Part shown: piece by piece, positions 14,180 through 47,673 of the stretch
Position numbering within the stretch: the first letter of the stretch is position 1
Layout: the number at the start of each line of letters is the position of its first letter
Virus record (IMG/VR): IMGVR_UViG_2537561945_000005
Span: 1 to 50,588 of that record
DNA from: a virus
Taxonomy: Duplodnaviria; Heunggongvirae; Uroviricota; Caudoviricetes
DNA: 50,588 bases
Reading direction: 5' to 3' (one strand)
Notes under the pieces: model-generated
Told to the model about the DNA's origin: nothing
The model's input: only the letters and a program-made list of their open reading frames with translations
Database searches by the model: none
Made by a program: the position numbers and the translations under genes

Positions 14180-14521
14180 ATGGATTATTCACAGTTAAGT
14201 GATTTTGAAATTAACAGAATGGTAGGAGACATAATTTTTAAAGGCCTTTGGGCAAGTAAACCGGAAACATCAGGGAATAACACCAACAAATGGTATTACG
14301 GAAATGCTGATACAACTTTTGAGCCATTAAATCATTTGCCTGACTACTGCAATGATCCGAGCGCTTCATGGCCGATTATTGAGAAATACAGGATTTCTAT
14401 CTTAGACCAGTTAACTGAATGGTGTGTGGATGCAAAAGGCGTAAGCCCAATATTTGATACCAGACCTCTCCGCGCCGCCATGATTGTCTTTCTCCTGATG
14501 CAGGAGGCCAATAATGCTTAG
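14180..14521 (+). CDS. Hypothetical nin-region protein
   Basis: 113-aa ORF with GAGGA 8 nt upstream; no family recognised. Confidence 0.45.
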
Positions 14522-14708
14522 CCCATCTCAATCCCTTCAATACCAGAAAGGAAGCATAGAGCGGGCTTCAATGAGCACAGAGTGGATTCTATCTAGGTTT
14601 AGCGCATACAGAAGATTGCCGGTAAAGGGCATGCCAAGCAAGTCGATGCTGCATATGCAAAAGAATGCGCGCTGGAAGGTATGGCGAAAACACAGGTTAT
14701 GTGGCTGA
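14514..14708 (+). CDS. NinF-like ORF, divergent after 12 residues (possible remnant)
   Basis: N-terminus [12 protein letters not shown] matches lambda NinF, but the remainder lacks the Cys-rich NinF body. Confidence 0.3.
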
Positions 14709-14727
14709 AAGAGGGGATTATTAAGGC

Positions 14728-15090
14728 GTGAATACCTACAGCATCACATTACCCTGGCCTCCGAGCAATAATCGCTATTACCGCCATAATCGCGGGCGCA
14801 CGCACGTCAGCGCAGAGGGGCAGGCATACCGCGATAACGTCGCCAGAATCATTAAAAACGCAATGCTGGATATCGGCCTGGCTATCCCTGTGAAAATCCG
14901 CATTGAGTGCCACATGCCGGATCGCCGTCGCCGTGACCTGGATAATCTGCAAAAAGCCGCTTTTGACGCACTCACTAAAGCAGGTTTCTGGCTGGATGAT
15001 GCTCAGGTCGTTGATTACCGCGTTGTGAAGATGCCTGTTACCAAAGGTGGGAGGCTGGAACTGACCATCACCGAAATGGGGAATGAATGA
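14728..15090 (+). CDS. rusA: RusA Holliday-junction resolvase
   Basis: 120 aa, essentially identical to E. coli DLP12 RusA. Confidence 0.9.
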
Positions 15091-15227
15091 TGTTTGAGTT
15101 TAATATGGCAGAACTTCTTCGCCACCGCTGGATGCGCCTGCGCTTATATCGTTTCCCCAGTTCTGTTTTGACCGATTACCGAATACTGAAGAATTACGCC
15201 AAAACCCTGACAGGAGCAGGAGTATGA
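15090..15227 (+). CDS. ylcG: YlcG-like small protein
   Basis: 45-aa [25 protein letters not shown]... between rusA and Q as in DLP12; below the ORF-track length cutoff. Confidence 0.45.
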   Translation: MFEFNMAELLRHRWMRLRLYRFPSSVLTDYRILKNYAKTLTGAGV

Positions 15228-15312
15228 AGTCAGAGATAACAATCAACTAATACTGTTTTGTTGATTTTTGCTTGTAATTGGCGTTCTGGTCTGATTTTTG
15301 TGGAGTAAGTTG

Positions 15313-15696
15313 ATGCGTGATATTCAGATGGTTCTTGAGCGTTGGGGAGCGTGGGCGGCTAATAATCATGAAGATGTGACCTGGTCGTCCATTGCCGCCG
15401 GTTTTAAGGGATTAATTACTTCAAAAGTAAAATCTCGCCCGCAATGTTGTGACGATGACGCGATGATTATTTGCGGGTGCATGGCCCGTCTGAAAAAGAA
15501 CAACAGCGATTTGCACGATTTATTAGTAGATTATTATGTAGTCGGTATGACATTCATGTCACTGGCAGGTAAGCATTGCTGCTCTGATGGTTATATCGGG
15601 AAAAGGTTACAGAAGGCTGAGGGCATAATTGAAGGGATGTTAATGGCATTAGATATCCGGTTAGAGATGGATATCGTTGTTAATAACTCTAATTAA
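15313..15696 (+). CDS. Q: Late antiterminator Q, DLP12 QuuD / phage 21 type
   Basis: 127 aa [22 protein letters not shown]... matches DLP12 QuuD; sits upstream of the porin and lysis genes. Confidence 0.75.
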
Positions 15697-15885
15697 TATG
15701 CCAATTATTTACTAAAAGTTATTAAAAATGGGGCGTTGAGACGCCCCCAAAAATAAAGGGTAATATATAACAGAAGGTTTATATAGTTAGAAGCAAGGTT
15801 GTGCTTCTAAAGGAAGTGGCTTGAGGGAGCCACTTATATGTTGGGGAGGCAACGCCTCCCGCAACATATCTTTTTCGTAATCAGA

Positions 15886-16983
15886 TTAGAACTGGTAAAC
15901 CAGACCTACAGCAACGATGTCATCAGTGCTTACACCGAGTGCTTTAGTGAAGTCATTTTTGTCAAGCAGGTTGATTTTGTAATCAACGAAAGTAGACATA
16001 TTTTTGTTGAAGTAATAGGTTGCACCTACATCAACATATTTGACTAAGTCCTGATCGCCCCATACTCCAAGATCCTTACCTTTAGATTGCAGGTAAGCAA
16101 CGGACGGACGCAGACCGAAATCGAACTGATATTGTGCAACAGCTTCGAAGTTTTGGGCTTTATTAGCAACGAAGTGATCAGCAAATACAGTCATATTCTG
16201 GGTTTCAGAATAGGTAGTGGCCAGGTAAATGTTGTTAGCGTCATATTTCAGACCTGCGGCCCAAACTTCTGCATTTTTACCGGAAGCAAATACTTCAGGA
16301 AGAACTTTCCCTGCATTAACTTGAGTGTCGGTACGATCAGATTTCGCATAAGTTGCACCGATACCGAATCCTTCGTATTCATAGGTAGCAGAGAAACCGA
16401 AGCCATCACCGTTACCTTCAGTGTAGTTATCGAAATCGCTACGATCGTTTTTGCCTTGGTACTGAGCAGCAAAGTTCAGACCATCAACCAGACCAAAGAA
16501 GTCGTTGTTACGATAGGTTGCAACACCAGTTGCACGTTGAGTCATGAACACGTCGGTTTGAGTCCAAGTGTCACCACCGAATTCTGGCAGGACGTCAGTC
16601 CACGCACCGATGTCGTATGCTACACCGTAGTTACGGCCGTAATCGATGGAGCCGTAGTCACCGAATTTCAGGCCAGCGAAGGCAAGACGGGTTTTATCTT
16701 TGGAGGAACCTTGAGATTCAGCGCGGTTGCCTTTGAATTCATATTCCCACTGACCGAAACCAGTCAGTTGATCGTTGATTTGGGTTTCACCTTTGAAGCC
16801 AAGACGGGCATAAGTAGTATCACCATCATCTGCATCATTAGAGGAGAAGTAGTGCTTAGCATTAACTTTCCCGTACAGATCCAGCTTGTTACTGTCTTTA
16901 TTATAAATTTCAGCTGCCTGAGCAGACATCGCCATCAGTACTGATGCAGCTACAGCAGAAATTGCCACTGTTAATTTTTTCAT
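15886..16983 (-). CDS. nmpC: Outer-membrane general porin, NmpC/Lc (OmpC family), intact
   Basis: 366 aa with signal peptide [23 protein letters not shown] and C-terminal ...VGLVYQF; OmpC/OmpF-type beta-barrel; same location as nmpC in DLP12. Confidence 0.85.
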
Positions 16984-17189
16984 CGTGAGCCCTTTTTTTG
17001 AACTATTATTAAAAAATGATGTCACTGCGCGATAAATATTCATCTAATCAATGTGATTATTTCAAGATGTAAGTTTTGGTTTCTCGTTTGATTTGTGAAG
17101 TAGATCTCTATTTTTATCTGAACTTTTTTCTATCGAATCCTATTCATGGCTCTTTGCTGAATAAAAATAAATCTATTAGCCAATTTATA

Positions 17190-17225
17190 TTAACGGCTGT
17201 TATTTATAAGTGCTCTATAATTTGA
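17190..17225 (+). promoter_or_regulatory. Candidate late promoter pR' (-10 TATAAT at 17216-17221)
   Basis: Consensus -10 hexamer about 190 nt upstream of a strong terminator; -35 is weak. Position between Q and lysis genes fits a Q-dependent late promoter. Confidence 0.35.
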
Positions 17226-17410
17226 AGGTTCAATTTAAACCGGCTAAAAATAACACTGGAAATTATTTGTTGGTTATTTGTTGGGATTTGCTTATGTATT
17301 TGTAGTGGTGTTTTCAATACTCGGTAGCATTCTCGCAAATATCATTTAGTGGTTTACGTACGTAAAAAATTGGTTATGCTGTTAAGAGTGGTTACTTCGT
17401 CACACAGCTT

Positions 17411-17443
17411 AAACCCGCCGTCGAGCGGGTTTTTCCATTTTTT
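17411..17443 (+). terminator. Rho-independent terminator (candidate tR')
   Basis: Hairpin ACCCGC-CGTCGA-GCGGGT followed by TTTTTCCATTTTTT, upstream of the holin gene. Confidence 0.6.
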
Positions 17444-17555
17444 GAGTCTCGATATTAGCTGATAACCCAATACCTGAGTTATTCACTGACTCCGAGTCTG
17501 TTACGTTTCGTAGTATTCCCTCAATTTACACCCGCTTTGTCTGCGAGGTGGGGTT

Positions 17556-17771
17556 ATGAAATCCATGGATAAGTTAACAACGGGTGTCGCCTATGGCACC
17601 TCAGCAGGTAGTGCCGGTTACTGGTTTTTACAGCTGCTCGATAAAGTCACGCCCTCACAGTGGGCAGCAATAGGTGTGCTGGGTAGCCTGGTATTTGGCC
17701 TGCTGACGTACCTGACAAACCTTTATTTCAAGATTAAAGAAGATAAGCGCAAGGCTGCGAGAGGTGAATAA
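17556..17771 (+). CDS. S: Pinholin, S21 type
   Basis: 71 aa with two TM segments; matches phage 21 S / DLP12 EssD. Confidence 0.85.
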
Positions 17772-18268
17772 TGCCTCCATCATTACGAAAAGCCGTTGCT
17801 GCTGCTATTGGTGGCGGAGCAATTGCTATAGCATCAGTGTTAATTACTGGCCCAAGTGGTAACGATGGTCTGGAAGGTGTCAGCTACATACCATACAAAG
17901 ATATTGTTGGTGTATGGACTGTATGTCACGGGCATACAGGAAAAGACATCATGCTCGGTAAAACGTATACCAAAGCAGAATGCAAAGCCCTCCTGAATAA
18001 AGACCTTGCCACGGTCGCCAGACAAATTAACCCGTACATCAAAGTCGATATACCGGAAACAATGCGCGGCGCTCTTTACTCATTCGTTTACAACGTGGGT
18101 GCTGGCAATTTCAGAACATCGACGCTTCTTCGCAAAATAAACCAAGGCGATATCAAAGGCGCATGTGATCAGCTACGTCGCTGGACATATGCTGGCGGTA
18201 AGCAATGGAAAGGTCTCATGACTCGTCGTGAGATTGAGCGTGAAATCTGTTTGTGGGGTCAGCAATGA
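17771..18268 (+). CDS. R: SAR endolysin (lysozyme), R21 type
   Basis: 165 aa with N-terminal signal-anchor-release segment ([18 protein letters not shown]) and T4-lysozyme-like body. Confidence 0.85.
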
Positions 18269-18726
18269 ACAGAGTAACCGCGATTATCTCCGCTCTGGTT
18301 ATCTGCATCATCGTCGGCCTGTCATGGGCTGTTAATCATTACCGTGATAACGCCATTACCTACAAAGCCCAGCGCGACAAAAATGCCAGAGAACTGAAGC
18401 TGGCGAACGCGGCAATTACTGACATGCAGATGCGTCAGCGTGATGTTGCTGCGCTCGATGCAAAATACACGAAGGAGTTAGCTGATGCGAAAGCTGAAAA
18501 TGATGCTCTGCGTGATGATGTTGCCGCTGGTCGTCGTCGGTTGCACATCAAAGCAGTCTGTCAGTCAGTGCGTGAAGCCACCACCGCCTCCGGCGTGGAT
18601 AATGCAGCCTCCCCCCGACTGGCAGACACCGCTGAACGGGATTATTTCACCCTCAGAGAGAGGCTGATCACTATGCAAAAACAACTGGAAGGAACCCAGA
18701 AGTATATTAATGAGCAGTGCAGATAG
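18265..18726 (+). CDS. Rz: Rz i-spanin
   Basis: N-terminal TM then coiled-coil; ATGA overlap with the endolysin stop. ORF track begins at GTG 18253. Confidence 0.8.
18485..18667 (+). CDS. Rz1: Rz1 o-spanin lipoprotein, embedded in Rz
   Basis: 60-aa +1-frame ORF inside Rz with lipobox VVVGC and a proline-rich body. Confidence 0.7.
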
Positions 18727-18757
18727 AGCTGCCCATATCGATGGGCAACTCATGCAA

Positions 18758-19051
18758 TTATTGTGAGCAATACACACGCGCTTCCAGCGGAGTATAAATG
18801 CCTAAAGTAATAAAACCGAGCAATCCATTTACGAATGTTTGCTGGGTTTCTGTTTTAACAACATTTTCTGCGCCGCCACAAATTTTGGCTGCATCAACAG
18901 TTTTCTCCTGTCCAATTCCCGAAACGAAGAAATGATGGGTGATGGTTTCCTTTGGTGTTACTGCTGTCGGTTTGTTTCCAACAGTAAACGTCTGTTGAGC
19001 ACATCCTGTAATAAGCATTGCCAGAGCGGCAGAAAACAACATTTTTTTCAT
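18758..19051 (-). CDS. bor: Bor lipoprotein (serum-resistance, lysogenic conversion)
   Basis: 97 aa MKKMLFSAALAMLITGCAQQTFTVGNK... matches lambda Bor; lipobox LITGC. Confidence 0.85.
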   Translation of the reverse strand: MKKMLFSAALAMLITGCAQQTFTVGNKPTAVTPKETITHHFFVSGIGQEKTVDAAKICGGAENVVKTETQQTFVNGLLGFITLGIYTPLEARVYCSQ

Positions 19052-19151
19052 CTTATTATCCTGTATTGTTAAAAACAGCAGAATCCTATGTGACAACAAT
19101 TAAACGATAGTTAAATGGATTGATGAAAATTAAAACTATATAGGTGTACGG

Positions 19152-19418
19152 TCAGACTATTGGAGGTAGTCTGGATTTGAATGTCAGTGTGTTGTCGGCA
19201 TTATGGCAATGCAATTTGGATAAAGCGGGGATTAAAAAGATAGAGGCGAGCCGGTCAGGTAGAAATGAATCAGGCTCAAAGTGAAGCGGAAAAGGTCTTT
19301 GGCACAAACTGATGCTGCCATAATTACAGCCTGATGACTTGTGGAATGAAACATGTTGAACCTCCTTAATTGATGTGATTCGAGTGAGGAAGGCATTCTG
19401 TCCCTCTATAGTGTCCAT
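19152..19418 (-). CDS. Hypothetical ORF downstream of bor
   Basis: 88-aa ORF with no recognisable features; may be non-coding. Confidence 0.2.
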   Translation of the reverse strand: MDTIEGQNAFLTRITSIKEVQHVSFHKSSGCNYGSISLCQRPFPLHFEPDSFLPDRLASIFLIPALSKLHCHNADNTLTFKSRLPPIV

Positions 19419-19575
19419 TAAATCAAACGGGAAATTTGTCTCATGCGTGAGACAAGTCTCTCCATTAGTGAGTTGTATTGATCGCGACTCTTCAAAGAAT
19501 CCATTACTGCGTTGATGAAAAAGGTTTACTACGAATGAAGGCAGCTATTTCGCTGGTTTCTTCATTGGAGTACAT

Positions 19576-19926
19576 ATGCCCCCACGAACCCCAAAAGCCT
19601 GCCGTGTTCGCGGCTGCCGCCATACCACCACTGACCCGTCAGGTTATTGCGAAAGCCACAAAAGCGAAGGCTGGAAGCAATACAAGCCAGGACAGTCCCG
19701 TCATCAGCGTGGTTATGGTTCTAAGTGGGATGTTATACGTACGCGCATTCTGAAGCGTGACAAAGGCCTGTGTCAGTTATGTCTGCGTGCTGGTGTGGTG
19801 CGTGAGGCGAAAACTGTTGACCACATCATCCCTAAAGCGCATGGCGGCACTGATGCCGACTGTAATCTGCAGAGTCTGTGCTGGCCGTGTCATAAGGCGA
19901 AGACGGCCCGTGAACGGTTGAAGTGA
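19576..19926 (+). CDS. HNH endonuclease (terminase-associated, HK97 gp74 type)
   Basis: 116 aa with paired CxxC and HNH motifs (CQLCLRAG...DHIIPKAHGG...CWPCH), immediately upstream of terS. Confidence 0.8.
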   Translation: MPPRTPKACRVRGCRHTTTDPSGYCESHKSEGWKQYKPGQSRHQRGYGSKWDVIRTRILKRDKGLCQLCLRAGVVREAKTVDHIIPKAHGGTDADCNLQSLCWPCHKAKTARERLK

Positions 19927-20051
19927 TAATGATTCTCAACTGCCTGAGGGGAGGGGCGGGTCAAATCCCTGCGGCCTGACGTCTTCCGGACTGCCCGCCC
20001 CATCGTTTTTTTATACCCGCGAAAAATGAAATTTAACCAGGAGTGCCGCAT
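19927..20051. other. Candidate cos region
   Basis: GC-rich inverted repeat GGGGCGGG...CCCGCCCC (19963-20006) between the HNH gene and terS, where HK97-type phages place cos. Confidence 0.3.
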
Positions 20052-39927: not shown

Positions 39928-41266
39928 CATAAGCGCTAACTTAAGGGTTGTGGTATTACGCCTGATATGATTTAACGTGCCGATGAATTACTCTCACGAT
40001 AACTGGTCAGCAATTCTGGCCCATATTGGTAAGCCCGAAGAACTGGATACTTCGGCACGTAATGCCGGGGCTCTAACCCGCCGCCGCGAAATTCGTGATG
40101 CTGCAACTCTGCTACGTCTGGGGCTGGCTTACGGCCCCGGGGGGATGTCATTACGTGAAGTCACTGCATGGGCTCAGCTCCATGACGTTGCAACATTATC
40201 TGACGTGGCTCTCCTGAAGCGGCTGCGGAATGCCGCCGACTGGTTTGGCATACTTGCCGCACAAACACTTGCTGTACGCGCCGCAGTTACGGGTTGTACA
40301 AGCGGAAAGAGATTGCGTCTTGTCGATGGAACAGCAATCAGTGCGCCCGGGGGCGGCAGCGCTGAATGGCGACTACATATGGGATATGATCCTCATACCT
40401 GTCAGTTCACTGATTTTGAGCTAACCGACAGCAGAGACGCTGAACGGCTGGACCGATTTGCGCAAACGGCAGACGAGATACGCATTGCTGACCGGGGATT
40501 CGGTTCGCGTCCCGAATGTATCCGCTCACTTGCTTTTGGAGAAGCTGATTATATCGTCCGGGTTCACTGGCGAGGATTGCGCTGGTTAACTGCAGAAGGA
40601 ATGCGCTTTGACATGATGGGTTTTCTGCGCGGGCTGGATTGCGGTAAGAACGGTGAAACCACTGTAATGATAGGCAATTCAGGTAATAAAAAAGCCGGAG
40701 CTCCCTTTCCGGCACGTCTCATTGCCGTATCACTTCCTCCCGAAAAAGCATTAATCAGTAAAACCCGACTGCTCAGCGAGAATCGTCGAAAAGGACGAGT
40801 AGTTCAGGCGGAAACGCTGGAAGCAGCGGGCCATGTGCTATTGCTAACATCATTACCGGAAGATGAATATTCAGCAGAGCAAGTGGCTGATTGTTACCGT
40901 CTGCGATGGCAAATTGAACTGGCTTTTAAGCGGCTCAAAAGTTTGCTGCACCTGGATGCTTTGCGTGCAAAGGAACCTGAACTCGCGAAAGCGTGGATAT
41001 TTGCTAATCTACTCGCCGCATTTTTAATTGACGACATAATCCAGCCATCGCTGGATTTCCCCCCCAGAAGTGCCGGATCCGAAAAGAAGAACTAACTCGT
41101 TGTGGAGAATAACAAAAATGGTCATCTGGAGCTTACAGGTGGCCATTCGTGGGACAGTATCCCTGACAGCCTACAAAACGCAATTGAAGAACGCGAGGCA
41201 TCGTCTTAACGAGGCACCGAGGCGTCGCATTCTTCAGATGGTTCAACCCTTAAGTTAGCGCTTATG
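39928..41266 (+). mobile_element. IS186 (IS4 family), complete, with 10-bp target-site duplication
   Basis: 1339-bp element with terminal inverted repeats CATAAGCGCTAACTTAAGGGTTG and direct repeats GGGCAAATCC at 39918-39927 and 41267-41276; target has the GGGG-N6-CCCC pattern. Confidence 0.9.
39983..41095 (+). CDS. insL: IS186 transposase InsL
   Basis: 370 aa from MNYSHDNWSAILAHIGK..., matching E. coli IS186 InsL. Confidence 0.9.
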   Translation: MNYSHDNWSAILAHIGKPEELDTSARNAGALTRRREIRDAATLLRLGLAYGPGGMSLREVTAWAQLHDVATLSDVALLKRLRNAADWFGILAAQTLAVRAAVTGCTSGKRLRLVDGTAISAPGGGSAEWRLHMGYDPHTCQFTDFELTDSRDAERLDRFAQTADEIRIADRGFGSRPECIRSLAFGEADYIVRVHWRGLRWLTAEGMRFDMMGFLRGLDCGKNGETTVMIGNSGNKKAGAPFPARLIAVSLPPEKALISKTRLLSENRRKGRVVQAETLEAAGHVLLLTSLPEDEYSAEQVADCYRLRWQIELAFKRLKSLLHLDALRAKEPELAKAWIFANLLAAFLIDDIIQPSLDFPPRSAGSEKKN

Positions 41267-41873
41267 GGGCAAATCCCCCTCTCTCCGCCACTTTATCAAT
41301 GACTTATCTCCCGACTTCCCGCCTTGCTTTTCCTAAACAGAACAATCGTAGAATATTCTTGAAGGGTTAGATCGTCACTGTTTTCTGTTCGATACTGTGA
41401 CATTCAGCACTTGATTCGCTATGGATCTGACAGGAAGGTTTCGAGCGAAAATCTGCAGTTATTCAGTCGTTTTCTTATCGGTCACCATTATTCTTTTAGA
41501 CATTGATCCTACAAAGCTGCCGCAAAGTTGGTGGTGGGAACTGAAGTTGCGTAGAGAAGGGGTCAATACCCGGAGGCAAACATGGGCTGGCAAAAGTGTA
41601 GCGGTATTAGGCGCAGCTATTTAGCCTAGTTATGTTTTATGAAAACTTGATATCATATAAGTGTCTTACTTATTGGCTGTAAATAAGGTTTTCTAAGGAA
41701 TTGTTTCTTTAGTATCATTTGTAACTGTAACGGAATTTATAATCCTTTGCTTTATTTTTACGGTATTTTTTATCACACCCTATTTTTTATGTGGTTTTTT
41801 ATACTGAAGTTTGGCAAAGTGAACTTTATATGCATATACTTCATCCTGGTTTCAGTTAAATTGGGTGGATGAT

Positions 41874-42617
41874 ATGGCAACTACATGTTCAGTTATATTG
41901 ATTTTGGAGTCCTTTGATGTTTATTTCGGAAAAGAGAGTGTGTTTCTGGATAGAGGTTTATCTGTACTTGTCGACTCTAGCTATAGAGATTTTTTCCTGA
42001 CATATCCTGAAAGAGTGATAGTGGCGGATTTTGGCGCTGAGTTTATTAGTCGCTATTTGAAAGCTAATAACTTAAGGGATATTTCTGATTGTAGGGAATA
42101 TCCATCTTATTTAAAAATAAACTTTGCTGACTTCAGTTTAATTAAAGGATTAATTAGTTGGGCTAATCACTGTGCTGAATATATAGAAATTTTTGATGAG
42201 TCTATTGCTTTTACATGTCTCTCTGCATTTTCTTCTGAAAAACAATTTGGAGTATTTCTGTTTGGATGTTTGAAAAGCACAGGGGCTAAAGTTAAAACGA
42301 TTATTCATACGGATTTATCTGCACCATGGCGTCTTAAGGATATATCATCAAGATTATATCTCAGCGAAAGTTTACTAAAGAGGAAATTGAAAGAAGAGGG
42401 GGTATCATTCAGTAAGATCATACTTGATGAGAGGATGCAAATGGCTGAATATTTACTCAGCACTCGTTGTTATCCTATTAGTAAAGTAGCTAAGGTCTGT
42501 GGTTATGCCAGTGTCTCATACTTTACTTATGTATTTAGACGTTATTTTGGTGTTTCTCCAAGTCAATACCCTCAGAGGAGTTCAGAAAGTAAAATTCTTA
42601 CTCACCAGGGAATCTGA
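41874..42617 (+). CDS. AraC-family transcriptional regulator (AppY/EnvY-like)
   Basis: 247 aa with C-terminal AraC-type HTH (ISKVAKVCGYASVSYFTYVFRRYFGVSPSQY); AT-rich gene; first ATG with GGTGG upstream, GTG alternative at 41865. Confidence 0.75.
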   Translation: MATTCSVILILESFDVYFGKESVFLDRGLSVLVDSSYRDFFLTYPERVIVADFGAEFISRYLKANNLRDISDCREYPSYLKINFADFSLIKGLISWANHCAEYIEIFDESIAFTCLSAFSSEKQFGVFLFGCLKSTGAKVKTIIHTDLSAPWRLKDISSRLYLSESLLKRKLKEEGVSFSKIILDERMQMAEYLLSTRCYPISKVAKVCGYASVSYFTYVFRRYFGVSPSQYPQRSSESKILTHQGI

Positions 42618-42658
42618 TCATTGTTCTTGCCCCCTTATTTCCAGACAGGGGGTGTATC

Positions 42659-43106: not shown

Positions 43107-43155
43107 ATTCGTAATGCGAAGGTCGTAGGTTCGACTCCTATTATCGGCACCATTT
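43107..43155 (+). repeat. attR of the prophage / attL of the downstream island: partial thrW 3' copy
   Basis: Exact 49-bp copy of 1399-1447; no tRNA 5' half, so not a functional tRNA. Confidence 0.8.
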
Positions 43156-43315
43156 CAAACTCTTCCCAAGTCTACCGAAATCAACTAAAAGCTCGTATAC
43201 TGCGGTTTCTGGCCCGTATCTTATCTCCTGTTATCAACTAGACTCAACCGAAATCAAGTCGCAGTTGGGGGCATAAGTGGGGGCATTTTGTGTTCGGTCT
43301 AGGGAGATGCCCCCA

Positions 43316-44524
43316 ATGAAACTTAATGCGCGACAGGTAGACGCAGCTAAACCCAGAGAGAAAGCCTATAAGCTGGCAGATGGTGCTGGTTTGTATCTTG
43401 AGGTTGTTCCCTCTGGTTCCAGATACTGGCGGATGAAATATCGCTTCAATGGAAAAGAGAAGCGTATGGCCTTTGGTGTCTATCCGGCAGTGTCCCTTGC
43501 ACAAGCGAGGGCACTGCGTGACGACGCCAAGAAAAAGCTTGCCGAAGGTATCGATCCATCGCTTGCCAAGAAAGAAGAAAAGCTGGTTCGAGATGTGCAG
43601 CTAAATAATACGTTTCAGGCTGTGGCACTTGAATGGCATGGAACGAAGGTGAGCCGATGGTCAGAAGGTTATGCCTCGGACATTATCGAAGCCTTTAATA
43701 AAGATATTTTTCCCTATATTGGCCAACAACCGGTGAATGAAATCAAACCGCTGGTTCTGCTTAATGTGCTGCGTCGAATTGAAAGCCGTGGCGCGACAGA
43801 GAAGGCCAAGAAGGTTCGCCAGCGTTGCAGCGAAGTCTTTCGTTACGCCATCGTAACCGGTCGTGCGGAATACAATCCTGCAGCGGATCTTACCAGCGCG
43901 ATGTCAGGGCATGAATCGAAGCATTATCCCTTCCTTACTGTTGAGGAGTTACCAGACTTTTTTAAAGCTCTCGCAGGCTACACAGGAAGCCCGTTAGTTG
44001 TTCTTGCGGCACGTCTGCTGATCCTCACGGGAGTTCGCACTGGCGAACTCCGAGGTGCTTTCTGGAGTGAGTTTGATCTTGAAAAAGCGGTGTGGGAGAT
44101 ACCTGCCGAGCGTATGAAGATGAAACGGCCTCACCTTGTCCCCCTCTCTACCCAAGCGCTGGAAATCGTACAGCAACTCAAAGTGATGTCAGGGCAATAT
44201 CCACTGGTGTTCCCGGGACGTAATGATCCCCGCAAGACGATGAGTGAAGCGAGTATTAATCAGGTTTTTAAGCGGATTGGATATACGGGGAGGGTAACGG
44301 GGCATGGTTTCCGTCACACGATGAGTACGATTTTGCATGAGGAAGGTTTCAATACAGCGTGGATTGAAACCCAGCTGGCTCACGTTGATAAAAATGCGAT
44401 TCGTGGGACGTATAACCATGCGTTGTATTTGGAAGGACGTAGGGAGATGATGCAGTGGTATGCGGACTATATAAACGCTAATCATAATTCATGTATTTCT
44501 TTGCTGGTGAACGCTACAAAGTAG
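43316..44524 (+). CDS. int: Tyrosine integrase, P4 type
   Basis: 402 aa with N-terminus MKLNARQVDAAKPREKAYKLADGAGLYLEVVPSGSRYWRMKYRFNGKEKRMAFGVYP and C-terminal R..HxxR..Y catalytic region; adjacent to the tRNA-derived att copy. Confidence 0.85.
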   Translation: MKLNARQVDAAKPREKAYKLADGAGLYLEVVPSGSRYWRMKYRFNGKEKRMAFGVYPAVSLAQARALRDDAKKKLAEGIDPSLAKKEEKLVRDVQLNNTFQAVALEWHGTKVSRWSEGYASDIIEAFNKDIFPYIGQQPVNEIKPLVLLNVLRRIESRGATEKAKKVRQRCSEVFRYAIVTGRAEYNPAADLTSAMSGHESKHYPFLTVEELPDFFKALAGYTGSPLVVLAARLLILTGVRTGELRGAFWSEFDLEKAVWEIPAERMKMKRPHLVPLSTQALEIVQQLKVMSGQYPLVFPGRNDPRKTMSEASINQVFKRIGYTGRVTGHGFRHTMSTILHEEGFNTAWIETQLAHVDKNAIRGTYNHALYLEGRREMMQWYADYINANHNSCISLLVNATK

Positions 44525-44765
44525 ATTTGACGTGATGATAGGATTGATTAGGAAAATGACCTAAAACCGTATATTTTGATACTTAAGTTTAAACATTAGC
44601 CCTATATCCGATCGCCCTTTGTTACCTACACTTCTATCTTTTTTAGGTTCTAGGGCTGAAAGATTTGAAGATAAGTTTATAAATATCAATAGATTACATG
44701 ATTGTGTTGGTTCTTGGGTAGCCGTAACGCCTAGGGCGGTAGCGTACTTAAGATGAGTATAAAAA

Positions 44766-45974
44766 ATGAACAGTAACTATATGCCATTCACACAACGAGA
44801 TAGTCTCGGAAGATACTATACAAAAGAATCCATAAGTGCATTATTGGTTTCTCAGATGAAAGCTGAAAAAGTCAATAATATTATTGATTTAGCTTCTGGT
44901 GAGGGGAGCTTAACCTATGCTGCTTTAGACCGATGGAAGAATGCAGAAGCATATTCTTTGGATATAGAATCTCGGATGTCAAAAAAAGTATGTGATAATC
45001 TTACTCATATTGTAACAGATGCCCTTGTTCATTCATTTCCTGAAATGCTTGCCCGACATCAAGGAAATTTTGATGTTGCAGTATGTAATCCTCCATTCAC
45101 TCTCCCTGAATGGAGGGATGATTATTTTAAAATCATTAGTGAGATTGGCGCAGATAAATATATATCTGTCTCAAAATATGTCCCAGCAGAGATAATATTT
45201 ATATCTCAAGTCATCAGGTTTCTTAAAAAGGGCGGTGAGGCTGGAATAATTTTACCTGATGGTATATTTACAGCAAGAAAGTTTATAGGTTTAAGACGAT
45301 ATTTATTGAATGAACATTCAATTACAAAAGTCATTGAATTGCCTAGGAATATCTTCAAAAGGACAGAGGCTAAAACACATATTTTAATTTTTAATAAAAA
45401 AATTATGCCTCATCATAAAATACAATTACATTGTATAACTAAAGATGGGGAATTGTCGCCTCCTGTTTTAATTAGAAAAGAAGATGCGGTTGAGAGAATG
45501 GACTACTCTTATCATTATAATAAAAATGAAGGTAAAGGGTTTAGCACAATAGGGATGCTTAAAAACATTTCAATTTTTAGAGGTAGGTTTAATTCAAAGG
45601 AAATTACGGAACATGTTTTTCATACGACAAAATTTAGTGGTGATGAAAAGTACATTAAATTCCACTGCAACTCTGTAGAAGAATTGAAGCCATCAAAATT
45701 AGATGTCATTGCTAAGCCTGGTGATATATTAATAGCAAGAGTTGGGCGAAATTTTCATAAAAAAATATTGTTTGTTGAGAGCGGCTATTCTTATATCAGT
45801 GACTGTATTTTTCTGATACGAGCCTCTGGTGGAGATAAGAAAAAACTATTTGATTTTCTTTGTTCTCAAGATGGGCAAGAGGAATTATCTCGAGCGAGTA
45901 GTGGTGTAGCCGCACAACATATTACAATGGATGCATTAAAAAAAATACATCTTGTAAGGATTAAACATGACTGA
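44766..45974 (+). CDS. N6-adenine DNA methyltransferase, gamma class (M.TaqI-like layout: catalytic domain plus C-terminal putative TRD)
   Basis: Motif X GRYYTKESI, motif I IIDLASGEGSL and motif IV NPPF in N-to-C order within the first ~115 aa; ~200-aa C-terminal domain; AT-rich. Confidence 0.75.
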   Translation: MNSNYMPFTQRDSLGRYYTKESISALLVSQMKAEKVNNIIDLASGEGSLTYAALDRWKNAEAYSLDIESRMSKKVCDNLTHIVTDALVHSFPEMLARHQGNFDVAVCNPPFTLPEWRDDYFKIISEIGADKYISVSKYVPAEIIFISQVIRFLKKGGEAGIILPDGIFTARKFIGLRRYLLNEHSITKVIELPRNIFKRTEAKTHILIFNKKIMPHHKIQLHCITKDGELSPPVLIRKEDAVERMDYSYHYNKNEGKGFSTIGMLKNISIFRGRFNSKEITEHVFHTTKFSGDEKYIKFHCNSVEELKPSKLDVIAKPGDILIARVGRNFHKKILFVESGYSYISDCIFLIRASGGDKKKLFDFLCSQDGQEELSRASSGVAAQHITMDALKKIHLVRIKHD

Positions 45975-47673
45975 TGTGGAATTAGATAGTAATTTTCTTA
46001 TCGAGGAACGAGCTGATTATATTGATGAGGATACGATAAAAAATAATACTATCAGATCTGGAGAGTTTTTCGATATTATACATAATGCTCTTATATCCCC
46101 AGGCATCAAACTTATAGTTGGTCCTAGGGGATGTGGTAAAACACATTTGATGCGTTATGCTTGGGTTGAATGTAAAAACGATGATAACGCACCATTACCA
46201 CTCTATGTTTCTTTTAATAAATATTTTAAGTTAGAGCCGCTTTTAAAAAATAAACCAAATGCAATTGATCTCTTTCATAAATGGGTATTAGCAAAGATAC
46301 TACTCTCTGCTTATGAAATTGCTTGCGATATTGAAGATTCTGAATATCTTGATTTGTCAACGATACTCATAGCGGATAAAGAGTTCCTAATTAATTTAAT
46401 CGTAAGGCTTGAGCAGGGTCTTTCGCCATCATTAGAACAAGAAAACATTGTTCAATTGATCAGTGTTTCTTCTGTCATATCCTCGTTGAGTTCACTATGT
46501 GATTGGCTTGAACGTAAAAGAGTCATTATTTTATTAGACGATGCAGCAATAAGCTTAACTCCTGAATATCTTTACGAGTTTTTTGATATTGTACGTAGTC
46601 TAAAAACCTCAAAAATAGCTTTAAAGGCATCGGTTTATCCTGGAACAACCGAATATGGCCCAAGGTTTCATGTTGCTCATGATGCTGAAACAATTGATGC
46701 TTGGATTTCGGTACAGCACCCTAATTATTCCTCAGTGATGGATGCTATAGCGCAGGCAAGGTTTCCTGGGTATGATGGCATTCCGGATGACTTGAAAGAG
46801 TTATTTAAATTCTCAGCATTTGGTATTCCACGTTCTTTTTTGATGATGTTAAGAGATTATCAAACAACTTTAAGTCAGACAACTCAGCAAAAATTTAATA
46901 AAATAATTGAAAGGTATGTTGAGCTTAGACTCAGCGAATACAGTTCACTAAAAGATAAGCTACCTCGATTGTTTGACATTGTTTCATTAGGTGAATCACT
47001 TTTATTAAAAGTAGTCGAATTACTCAAGGAAAGTAACTCCCAATATAAAGAAGAGAAACAAGTCATAATCGGTATAGAGAAAAATGATAATGTTTATTTT
47101 TCTCGACTCACTAAGCTATTAATTGAAACAGGGCTTTTTTATAATCTTCCTGATATTTCTCATGGTGATGGGCGTACTTATGAAAGATATATACCTCATT
47201 ATGCTTTATTAATAAAGGAAAGAGTGTTTAACGAAGGAAGTAGAGGTTTTTCTCCTTCTCAGATTATTCAAAAAATACTAAGAAAGAATGCTAAGCATCC
47301 TGTCAGAAGAAACATTTCATCATTATTCAATGCTGAGCAACTTGCGAGACTTAAACTAACTTTACCTCCATGCAATAACTGCAAGACTCCGCGATTGACT
47401 GACAATCAAAAATTTTGCCATCATTGTGGGAATCAATTGATTGATGAGTCGGCCTATAATCAGTGCATGTCTATTCCACTGTCAAAAGTACCACATCTAA
47501 CATCTTGGCAAATGCAAAAACTATCTGGGCTGGAAAAAGTAAAAACTATAGGAGATGTATTGTCTTTACAAGACCCTGGGAGTGAGTTAAGAAAAATTCA
47601 CAGAATAGGACCCAAAATTGCCAATAAAATTATGGACAAAGTGTTATTACATGTTGAAGAGTTTTTGTCTTAA
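45967..47673 (+). CDS. P-loop NTPase with C-terminal zinc ribbon and helix-hairpin-helix
   Basis: Walker A GPRGCGKTHLMR, Walker B VIILLDDAA, C-terminal CNNCK...CHHCG and HhH-like IHRIGPKIANKI; 8-nt overlap with the methyltransferase gene. Confidence 0.7.
   Translation: MTDVELDSNFLIEERADYIDEDTIKNNTIRSGEFFDIIHNALISPGIKLIVGPRGCGKTHLMRYAWVECKNDDNAPLPLYVSFNKYFKLEPLLKNKPNAIDLFHKWVLAKILLSAYEIACDIEDSEYLDLSTILIADKEFLINLIVRLEQGLSPSLEQENIVQLISVSSVISSLSSLCDWLERKRVIILLDDAAISLTPEYLYEFFDIVRSLKTSKIALKASVYPGTTEYGPRFHVAHDAETIDAWISVQHPNYSSVMDAIAQARFPGYDGIPDDLKELFKFSAFGIPRSFLMMLRDYQTTLSQTTQQKFNKIIERYVELRLSEYSSLKDKLPRLFDIVSLGESLLLKVVELLKESNSQYKEEKQVIIGIEKNDNVYFSRLTKLLIETGLFYNLPDISHGDGRTYERYIPHYALLIKERVFNEGSRGFSPSQIIQKILRKNAKHPVRRNISSLFNAEQLARLKLTLPPCNNCKTPRLTDNQKFCHHCGNQLIDESAYNQCMSIPLSKVPHLTSWQMQKLSGLEKVKTIGDVLSLQDPGSELRKIHRIGPKIANKIMDKVLLHVEEFLS

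Follow-up and report, generated by a model that had tools for sequence, protein, structure and literature searches.

The window analyzed here is a 50,588-nucleotide (nt) stretch of DNA from a tailed virus (Caudoviricetes; IMG/VR record IMGVR_UViG_2537561945_000005, positions 1 to 50,588), and its subject is the late region of the prophage that it contains, in which a porin gene and a lipoprotein gene of the Bor family accompany the lysis genes. The gene order, Q, porin (minus strand), S, R, Rz/Rz1 and bor (minus strand), is the same in the DLP12 prophage of Escherichia coli K-12 and in phage PA-2, and the region is very probably the classical lambdoid qsr'/DLP12-PA-2 late module with all of its genes intact. 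An earlier, sequence-only reading had singled out positions 15886-19051, a span whose two ends coincide with the stop codon of the porin gene and the start codon of bor, as a pair of lysogenic-conversion genes. In what follows, sequence identity, gene integrity and the conservation of regulatory and 3' untranslated region (3'UTR) sequences were established from the window, and promoter activity, protein production, the effect of the ipeX RNA and the effect on permeability were taken from papers on near-identical genes. The features on which the argument turns are listed below, including the target of the insertion sequence (IS) IS5.

15886-16983, minus strand: intact porin gene nmpC/lc, 365 residues, assigned from family matches and from identity to K-12 NmpC and PA-2 Lc
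15719-15885, minus strand: porin 3'UTR, 167 nt, the ipeX small RNA region, ending in a Rho-independent terminator, assigned from identity to PA-2 and K-12
16984-17182, minus strand: nmpC promoter region PnmpC (-199 to -1), including the CRP site at 17091-17111; one nucleotide differs from K-12
15944-15947, minus strand: unoccupied IS5 target CTAA, filled by IS5 in K-12 DLP12 and in the phage 434 record
18758-19051, minus strand: Bor-family outer-membrane lipoprotein, iss-like, 97 residues (PF06291, E=6.6e-31; phrog_260)

Read from its first ATG, the porin open reading frame spans 15886-17043 on the minus strand and encodes 385 residues in the program-made list of reading frames. By homology, the start is the ATG at 16983, which gives a protein of 365 residues and is also the start chosen by the Prokaryotic Genome Annotation Pipeline (PGAP) in an identical genome; the K-12 and PA-2 records use it as well. 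The 385-residue form starting at the ATG at 17043 was rejected, as no annotation of NmpC, Lc or a host porin has anything equivalent to the additional 20 residues. The protein matches the Pfam Porin_1 model over the entire profile (PF00267, positions 1-337 of 337, E=5.6e-157, 522.9 bits against a cut-off of 23.7) and exceeds the curated cut-off of the NCBIfam 'porin OmpC' subfamily (NF007841, 529.8 bits against 484), while in the same NCBIfam profile search it scores under the cut-offs of the PhoE and OmpF equivalog models. The reading frame contains no internal stop or frameshift. Codons 1-23 (16915-16983) encode a classical cleavable Sec signal peptide (MKK...SAQA, cleaved before AEIYNK), the mature N-terminus lines up with residue 1 of the solved OmpC chains, residue 133 is the first of the PEFGG motif of constriction loop L3, and the C-terminal sequence VYQF supplies the aromatic last residue. 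The alignment to the mature chains of solved OmpC, OmpF and PhoE structures runs end to end (OmpC, E=4e-137), and from this alignment to trimeric porins the product is predicted to be a sixteen-strand beta-barrel forming trimers in the outer membrane. Among the structure matches returned by a PDB sequence search, none is deposited as NmpC, Lc or OmpD, the last of these being the label that the gene carries in several phage records. The sequence-only description of an intact, full-length OmpC-family porin with a signal peptide, lying on the opposite strand between Q and the lysis cassette, is thus borne out in each of its parts, including the position of the gene.

The same reading had contrasted this gene with its K-12 equivalent, said to be disrupted by an insertion sequence, and the comparison confirms this. 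The NmpC fragment upstream of IS5 in K-12 DLP12 is identical to the window porin at 346 of 346 residues; in MG1655, IS5 splits nmpC after codon 346, whereas the window gene is uninterrupted and its CTAA target is empty. The family matches and this identity far exceed what chance would produce. The CTAA junction of IS5 in K-12 has been confirmed (PMC11677980), and the phage 434 record carries the annotation 'IS5 insertion after codon 346'. The flanking sequences are equally close to DLP12, with 99-100% identity over the Q-porin and porin-S intergenic regions (4 of 577 positions differ in the latter) and only scattered single-base differences in S, R and Rz. The occupancy of the IS5 site among complete E. 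coli genomes was assessed with a 120-nt probe across the site, which was found intact in 770 genomes and interrupted in about 300, mostly K-12 derivatives; therefore, the intact allele is the common natural state and the K-12 disruption the exception. Of 5,426 complete E. coli genomes, 1,804, about a third, contain 80% or more of the 4.2-kb module, with several genomic copies 100% identical and annotated quuD, porin, essD, rrrD, rzpD and iss; strains BE311 and CPE35 are among those that carry exactly this module. Among phage records, the porin occurs in 42, including PA-2 (J02580) and phage 434, and bor in 195; iss is found on 639 plasmids.

The lc region of PA-2 (GenBank J02580; Rz-R-S, CRP sites, lc and 3'UTR) is colinear with the window over all 2816 nt, at 96.5% identity. 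No difference is seen in the signal peptide, in either annotated CRP site or in the 167-nt 3'UTR, and a 16-nt indel separates the two sequences upstream of S. PA-2 Lc and the window porin share 361 of 365 residues (98.9%) and differ by four changes, R99H, Q149G, A151T and V154F, the last three of which fall in the segment of the L3 constriction loop. All 21 nucleotide differences between the two genes lie within one 173-nt patch (16524-16696, nt 288-460 of the coding sequence) that includes L3. This distribution suggests a recombination patch, which could alter pore properties.

A consensus promoter scan detected no sigma-70-like site in the porin-S intergenic region (4 sites overall, against 9.6 in shuffled sequences), and hence the nmpC promoter was assigned from the K-12 literature. 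In K-12, deletion of the stretch from -199 to -1 abolishes PnmpC, 5' rapid amplification of cDNA ends places a sigma-70 transcription start within it, the promoter is activated by CRP and repressed by OmpR, IHF and MprA, and its transcript is detectable in minimal glycerol medium (PMC11677980). In the window, the CRP site at 17091-17111 is identical to the annotated PA-2 site at 21 of 21 positions. For NmpC homologues in strain CFT073, both mRNA and protein are favoured at 37 C (PMC12890032), and outer-membrane preparations of adherent-invasive E. coli (AIEC) contain NmpC homologues (PMC9409007). Porin production has therefore already been detected for near-identical genes in other strains, and would carry over from them to the window lysogen. 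When excision of an insertion sequence reactivates nmpC, cefotaxime permeability rises (bioRxiv 10.64898/2026.08.19.745717), which agrees, for a near-identical gene in a strain other than the window lysogen, with the earlier proposal that an extra porin changes outer-membrane permeability.

Downstream of the porin stop codon, and just outside the span of the sequence-only reading, the 167-nt 3'UTR aligns without mismatches to both PA-2 and K-12. It folds into a series of hairpins (-62.9 kcal/mol, z=-9.5 relative to shuffled sequences) and a terminator scan places its terminator hairpin at 15730-15747, with a T-run after it. At 167 nt, it has the length given for ipeX (PMC12197685), an RNA that lowers OmpC and OmpF synthesis (PMC12197685, PMC3333887, PMC5069750, PMC3617542) and that is unannotated in the public record of the identical genome.

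The second gene, bor, lies 31 nt beyond the Rz stop codon and is convergent with Rz, and so follows Rz as had been reported. Its product scores 106.7 bits against PF06291 (cut-off 25), matches phrog_260 over residues 1-97 of 97 and contains a lipobox, LITG before C, from which the lipidated cysteine is read as C17; a PDB sequence search returned no solved Bor structure. The protein is 91% identical to K-12 BorD and 99-100% identical to plasmid proteins annotated as Iss. From the Iss of ColV-type plasmids it differs by a single residue (L83 in the window, F83 on the plasmid), and the upstream ATG that provides the 102-residue form of the plasmid protein, with its MQDNK... extension, is ATA in the window. 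By these sequence markers, the window gene is a chromosomal or prophage iss-like allele, neither the ColV-plasmid allele nor a lambda-bor-like one. Homology to K-12 DLP12 is high over the 3' two-thirds of bor, falls in its 5' third and is lost upstream (18950-19110), and the region upstream of bor resembles that upstream of plasmid iss; as judged from the alignments, a mosaic junction is located inside bor.

The remaining genes of the module are located on the plus strand, as follows.

15313-15696, plus strand: late antiterminator Q, QuuD type (Q21 family; PF06530, E=4e-53; annotated quuD here by PGAP in an identical genome)
17354-17445, plus strand: candidate late promoter pR' (TTTACG-16 nt-TATGCT, 17354-17381) with candidate terminator tR' (hairpin 17411-17432, T-run)
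17556-17771, plus strand: holin S, phage-21 pinholin type, with dual start MKSM (PF04971, E=2e-35; PGAP essD)
17771-18268, plus strand: endolysin R (RrrD, lysozyme; PF00959, E=1.3e-45; PGAP annotation)
18265-18726, plus strand: spanin Rz (RzpD; PF03245, E=2.8e-54; PGAP and K-12 annotation)
18485-18667, plus strand: Rz1 lipoprotein gene embedded in Rz (PF06085, E=2.9e-20)

A plus-strand terminator with a T-run at 17411-17432 was detected upstream of S in the terminator scan, and it belongs to a 77-nt block that is kept directly upstream of S in phage SfII. For the promoter-like element preceding it, phage Lambda_ev087, which lacks the porin, offers only a weak match (E=0.15). The identification of 17354-17445 as a pR'/tR' pair, with a predicted transcript start near 17388 and Q-dependent read-through of the terminator at 17411-17445, is offered as a suggestion only. 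If the element is pR', the porin gene occupies the space between Q and this promoter, and late transcription would proceed without an antisense run through the porin. The other of the two CRP sites of the 1986 PA-2 record (17387-17407) overlaps this candidate element. Across related phages, the interval between Q and S (15697-17555) is a variable cargo slot. In Lambda_ev087, which has a Q that is 90% identical and the same lysis and bor genes, the porin is replaced by a minus-strand lipocalin gene (Blc), a YbgA-like gene and two hypothetical genes, and in SfII the slot holds two minus-strand hypothetical genes.

The module is part of a 41.7-kb prophage delimited by 52-nt direct repeats (1399-1450 and 43107-43158) of the attachment site (att), which correspond to the 3' part of tRNA-Thr and place the integration at tRNA-Thr(CGT), thrW. 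The prophage is complete-looking, with an integrase, a lambda-like early region, nin genes, the late module, a P27-type terminase, an HK97-type head and a Mu/SfV-like contractile tail. The integration site (argU in K-12, thrW here) and the virion genes differ between the phages that carry the module. Several other features were observed along the window. In the public annotation, the segment directly after the second att copy (43316-47500) starts with another tyrosine integrase gene, and behind it come genes for an HsdM-like methyltransferase and an ORC/CDC6-family AAA ATPase and a hypothetical gene; it has the look of a further island, perhaps one for defence, integrated in tandem at thrW. 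The right end of the prophage (39980-42620), still within the att repeats, carries after the tail-fibre genes an IS4-like IS421 transposase, an AraC-family regulator and an integrase-core fragment, and the tail-fibre gene stfP is flagged as truncated by PGAP. In the nin region, the public annotation of the identical genome records a truncated DUF1364 pseudogene (14642-14731) directly upstream of rusA. Between bor and an HNH endonuclease gene, PGAP lists in the identical genome a pseudogene at 19156-19284 described as 'Rz1 lytic protein, missing N-terminus', which was not reproduced here: tblastn with the window's own Rz and Rz1 gave no match at that position.

Taken together with the published work, these features are best explained by two lysogenic-conversion genes, each with its own promoter and both on the strand opposite to the late operon. 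The nmpC/lc gene would encode an OmpC/OmpF/PhoE-family porin of the general-diffusion type, which Sec would export for insertion into the outer membrane. Its expression would depend on a sigma-70 promoter activated by CRP and repressed by OmpR, IHF and MprA, and would be favoured at 37 C. The end of its mRNA would be the structured 167-nt ipeX 3'UTR, lowering OmpC and OmpF synthesis post-transcriptionally, so that the lysogen would partly exchange its host porins for the phage porin. Such an exchange would change permeability and deprive OmpC-dependent phages of their receptor. The bor/iss gene would add a small outer-membrane lipoprotein associated with a modest gain in serum survival. We infer that the published effects operate in this particular lysogen as well. 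The sequence-only reading had held that the porin can serve as or block a phage receptor; the lowering of OmpC and OmpF by ipeX is consistent with this, although the blocking effect would reside largely in the 3'UTR, beyond the span to which that reading had assigned it.

A few observations weigh against this explanation. A permissive Rfam scan of 14500-20000, with a library that may contain no ipeX model, gave no ipeX match, only a chance microRNA hit (E=0.91), and for this reason the ipeX assignment derives solely from sequence identity to the described locus; secondary sources, moreover, conflict on the dependence of ipeX on Hfq or on base pairing (PMC3617542 versus PMC5069750). With respect to the lipoprotein, bor and iss have been linked to serum survival (PMC4313913 and references therein), but avian pathogenic E. 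coli (APEC) O78-9 needs plasmid iss for serum survival, and chromosomal iss and bor alleles failed to replace it (PMC4313913). The contribution of the window allele to serum resistance may therefore be small or nil, and the link that the earlier reading drew between Bor and serum resistance, while real for the family, is uncertain for this allele. Lastly, the region upstream of the porin is AT-rich (30-35% GC), making silencing of the H-NS type possible under some conditions. This last point opens an alternative in which the porin gene, while intact, is quiescent and confers no phenotype, either through H-NS silencing of its AT-rich promoter or through repression by OmpR, IHF or MprA. Besides the base composition, the several repressors reported for nmpC (PMC11677980) and its historical label as a 'quiescent' porin gene (title of reference 84 in PMC3333887) speak for such a state. 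The quiescence of the cited laboratory strains, however, is due to insertion elements and not to the promoter (IS5 in K-12, IS1A in an evolved strain; bioRxiv 2026), the K-12 promoter from which the PnmpC transcript was detected (PMC11677980) differs from that of the window by 1 nt, and the homologous protein has been seen in CFT073 at 37 C (PMC12890032) and in the AIEC preparations (PMC9409007). Given an active and nearly identical K-12 promoter, silencing of the porin is unlikely, and a quiescent gene is an improbable account of the locus.

Under an entirely different origin, neither gene would be phage cargo: the porin gene would be a chromosomal ompC paralogue of the host and the lipoprotein gene an ordinary host gene as well, both lying near phage remnants by happenstance. 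The placement of the porin in the OmpC subfamily by NCBIfam and the annotation of related prophage copies as 'ompC' in some genomes would fit this notion, but both genes are enclosed in an att-bounded 41.7-kb element with integrase, replication, lysis, head and tail genes, they recur in the 42 and 195 phage genomes noted above, and the module occupies different chromosomal sites in K-12 (argU) and in the window (thrW). A non-phage origin is excluded by this context, and the probability left to it is negligible. More weight is due to the possibility that the main value of the module is phage-directed, with porin and ipeX serving mostly superinfection exclusion and with the permeability and serum effects as by-products. 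The different cargo found in the Q-S slot of related phages is as expected for morons under phage-level selection. From work of the Schnaitman laboratory, the PA-2 receptor is reportedly OmpC and PA-2 lysogens are said to lose OmpC, a point on which a literature search gave nothing usable. The lowering of both OmpC and OmpF by ipeX points in the same direction (PMC3333887, PMC5069750). Against it, the tail of this prophage is contractile and Mu/SfV-like, so that self-exclusion is not implied, and the thermoregulation of nmpC at host temperature (PMC12890032) suggests a host-adaptive use. A predominantly phage-directed value is thus a minority possibility, and one that is compatible with, and overlaps, the best explanation, that of two lysogenic-conversion genes. 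In a more speculative extension, to which we attach somewhat less belief still, porin, ipeX, lysis genes and iss would be selected together as an 'envelope-remodelling' cassette and be passed on as one block between virion types that are unrelated: it is found here with a lambda-like early region and a Mu/SfV-like contractile tail, and elsewhere in lambda-like phage genomes. Such a cassette would protect against OmpC-dependent competitors and not against the carrier phage, and the L3 patch would represent a diversifying exchange of pore or receptor properties.

On the preferred explanation, a strain that carries the prophage probably produces, at body temperature, one general porin more and smaller amounts of OmpC and OmpF. 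This could shift its permeability to beta-lactams, its sensitivity to OmpC- or OmpF-using phages and colicins, and its set of outer-membrane antigens. Virulence-gene screens will flag the iss-like gene, and annotators should be aware that an 'iss' call at this position denotes a prophage bor-type allele whose serum effect is uncertain. The value of these observations is practical and not conceptual, and they open no new question.

The module has been known since the 1980s through nmpC of qsr'/DLP12, lc of PA-2 and bor of lambda, and the only additions made here to that picture are the ipeX 3'UTR, the iss-like bor allele and the mosaic patch in L3 relative to PA-2. In K-12, the DLP12 genes quuD, nmpC, essD, rrrD, rzpD/rzoD and borD have the same order and strands as their counterparts in the window, but DLP12 is a decayed remnant at argU, and the window element is a complete-looking prophage at thrW with other structural genes. 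Lambda Bor is 91.8% identical to the window protein and shares with it the PF06291 family, the length of 97 residues, the lipobox and the position after Rz on the opposite strand. Among host porins, the window protein is 66% identical to K-12 OmpC, 62% to K-12 OmpF and 65% to the PhoE encoded beside the prophage in strain BE311. It has in common with OmpC, OmpF and PhoE (2J1N, 2OMF and 1PHO) and with Salmonella OmpD its length, its domain, the PEFGG motif of L3 and the C-terminal YQF. Unlike the genes for OmpC, OmpF and PhoE, the window gene is phage-borne and has a CRP-dependent promoter of its own, as assigned from K-12, and a regulatory 3'UTR.

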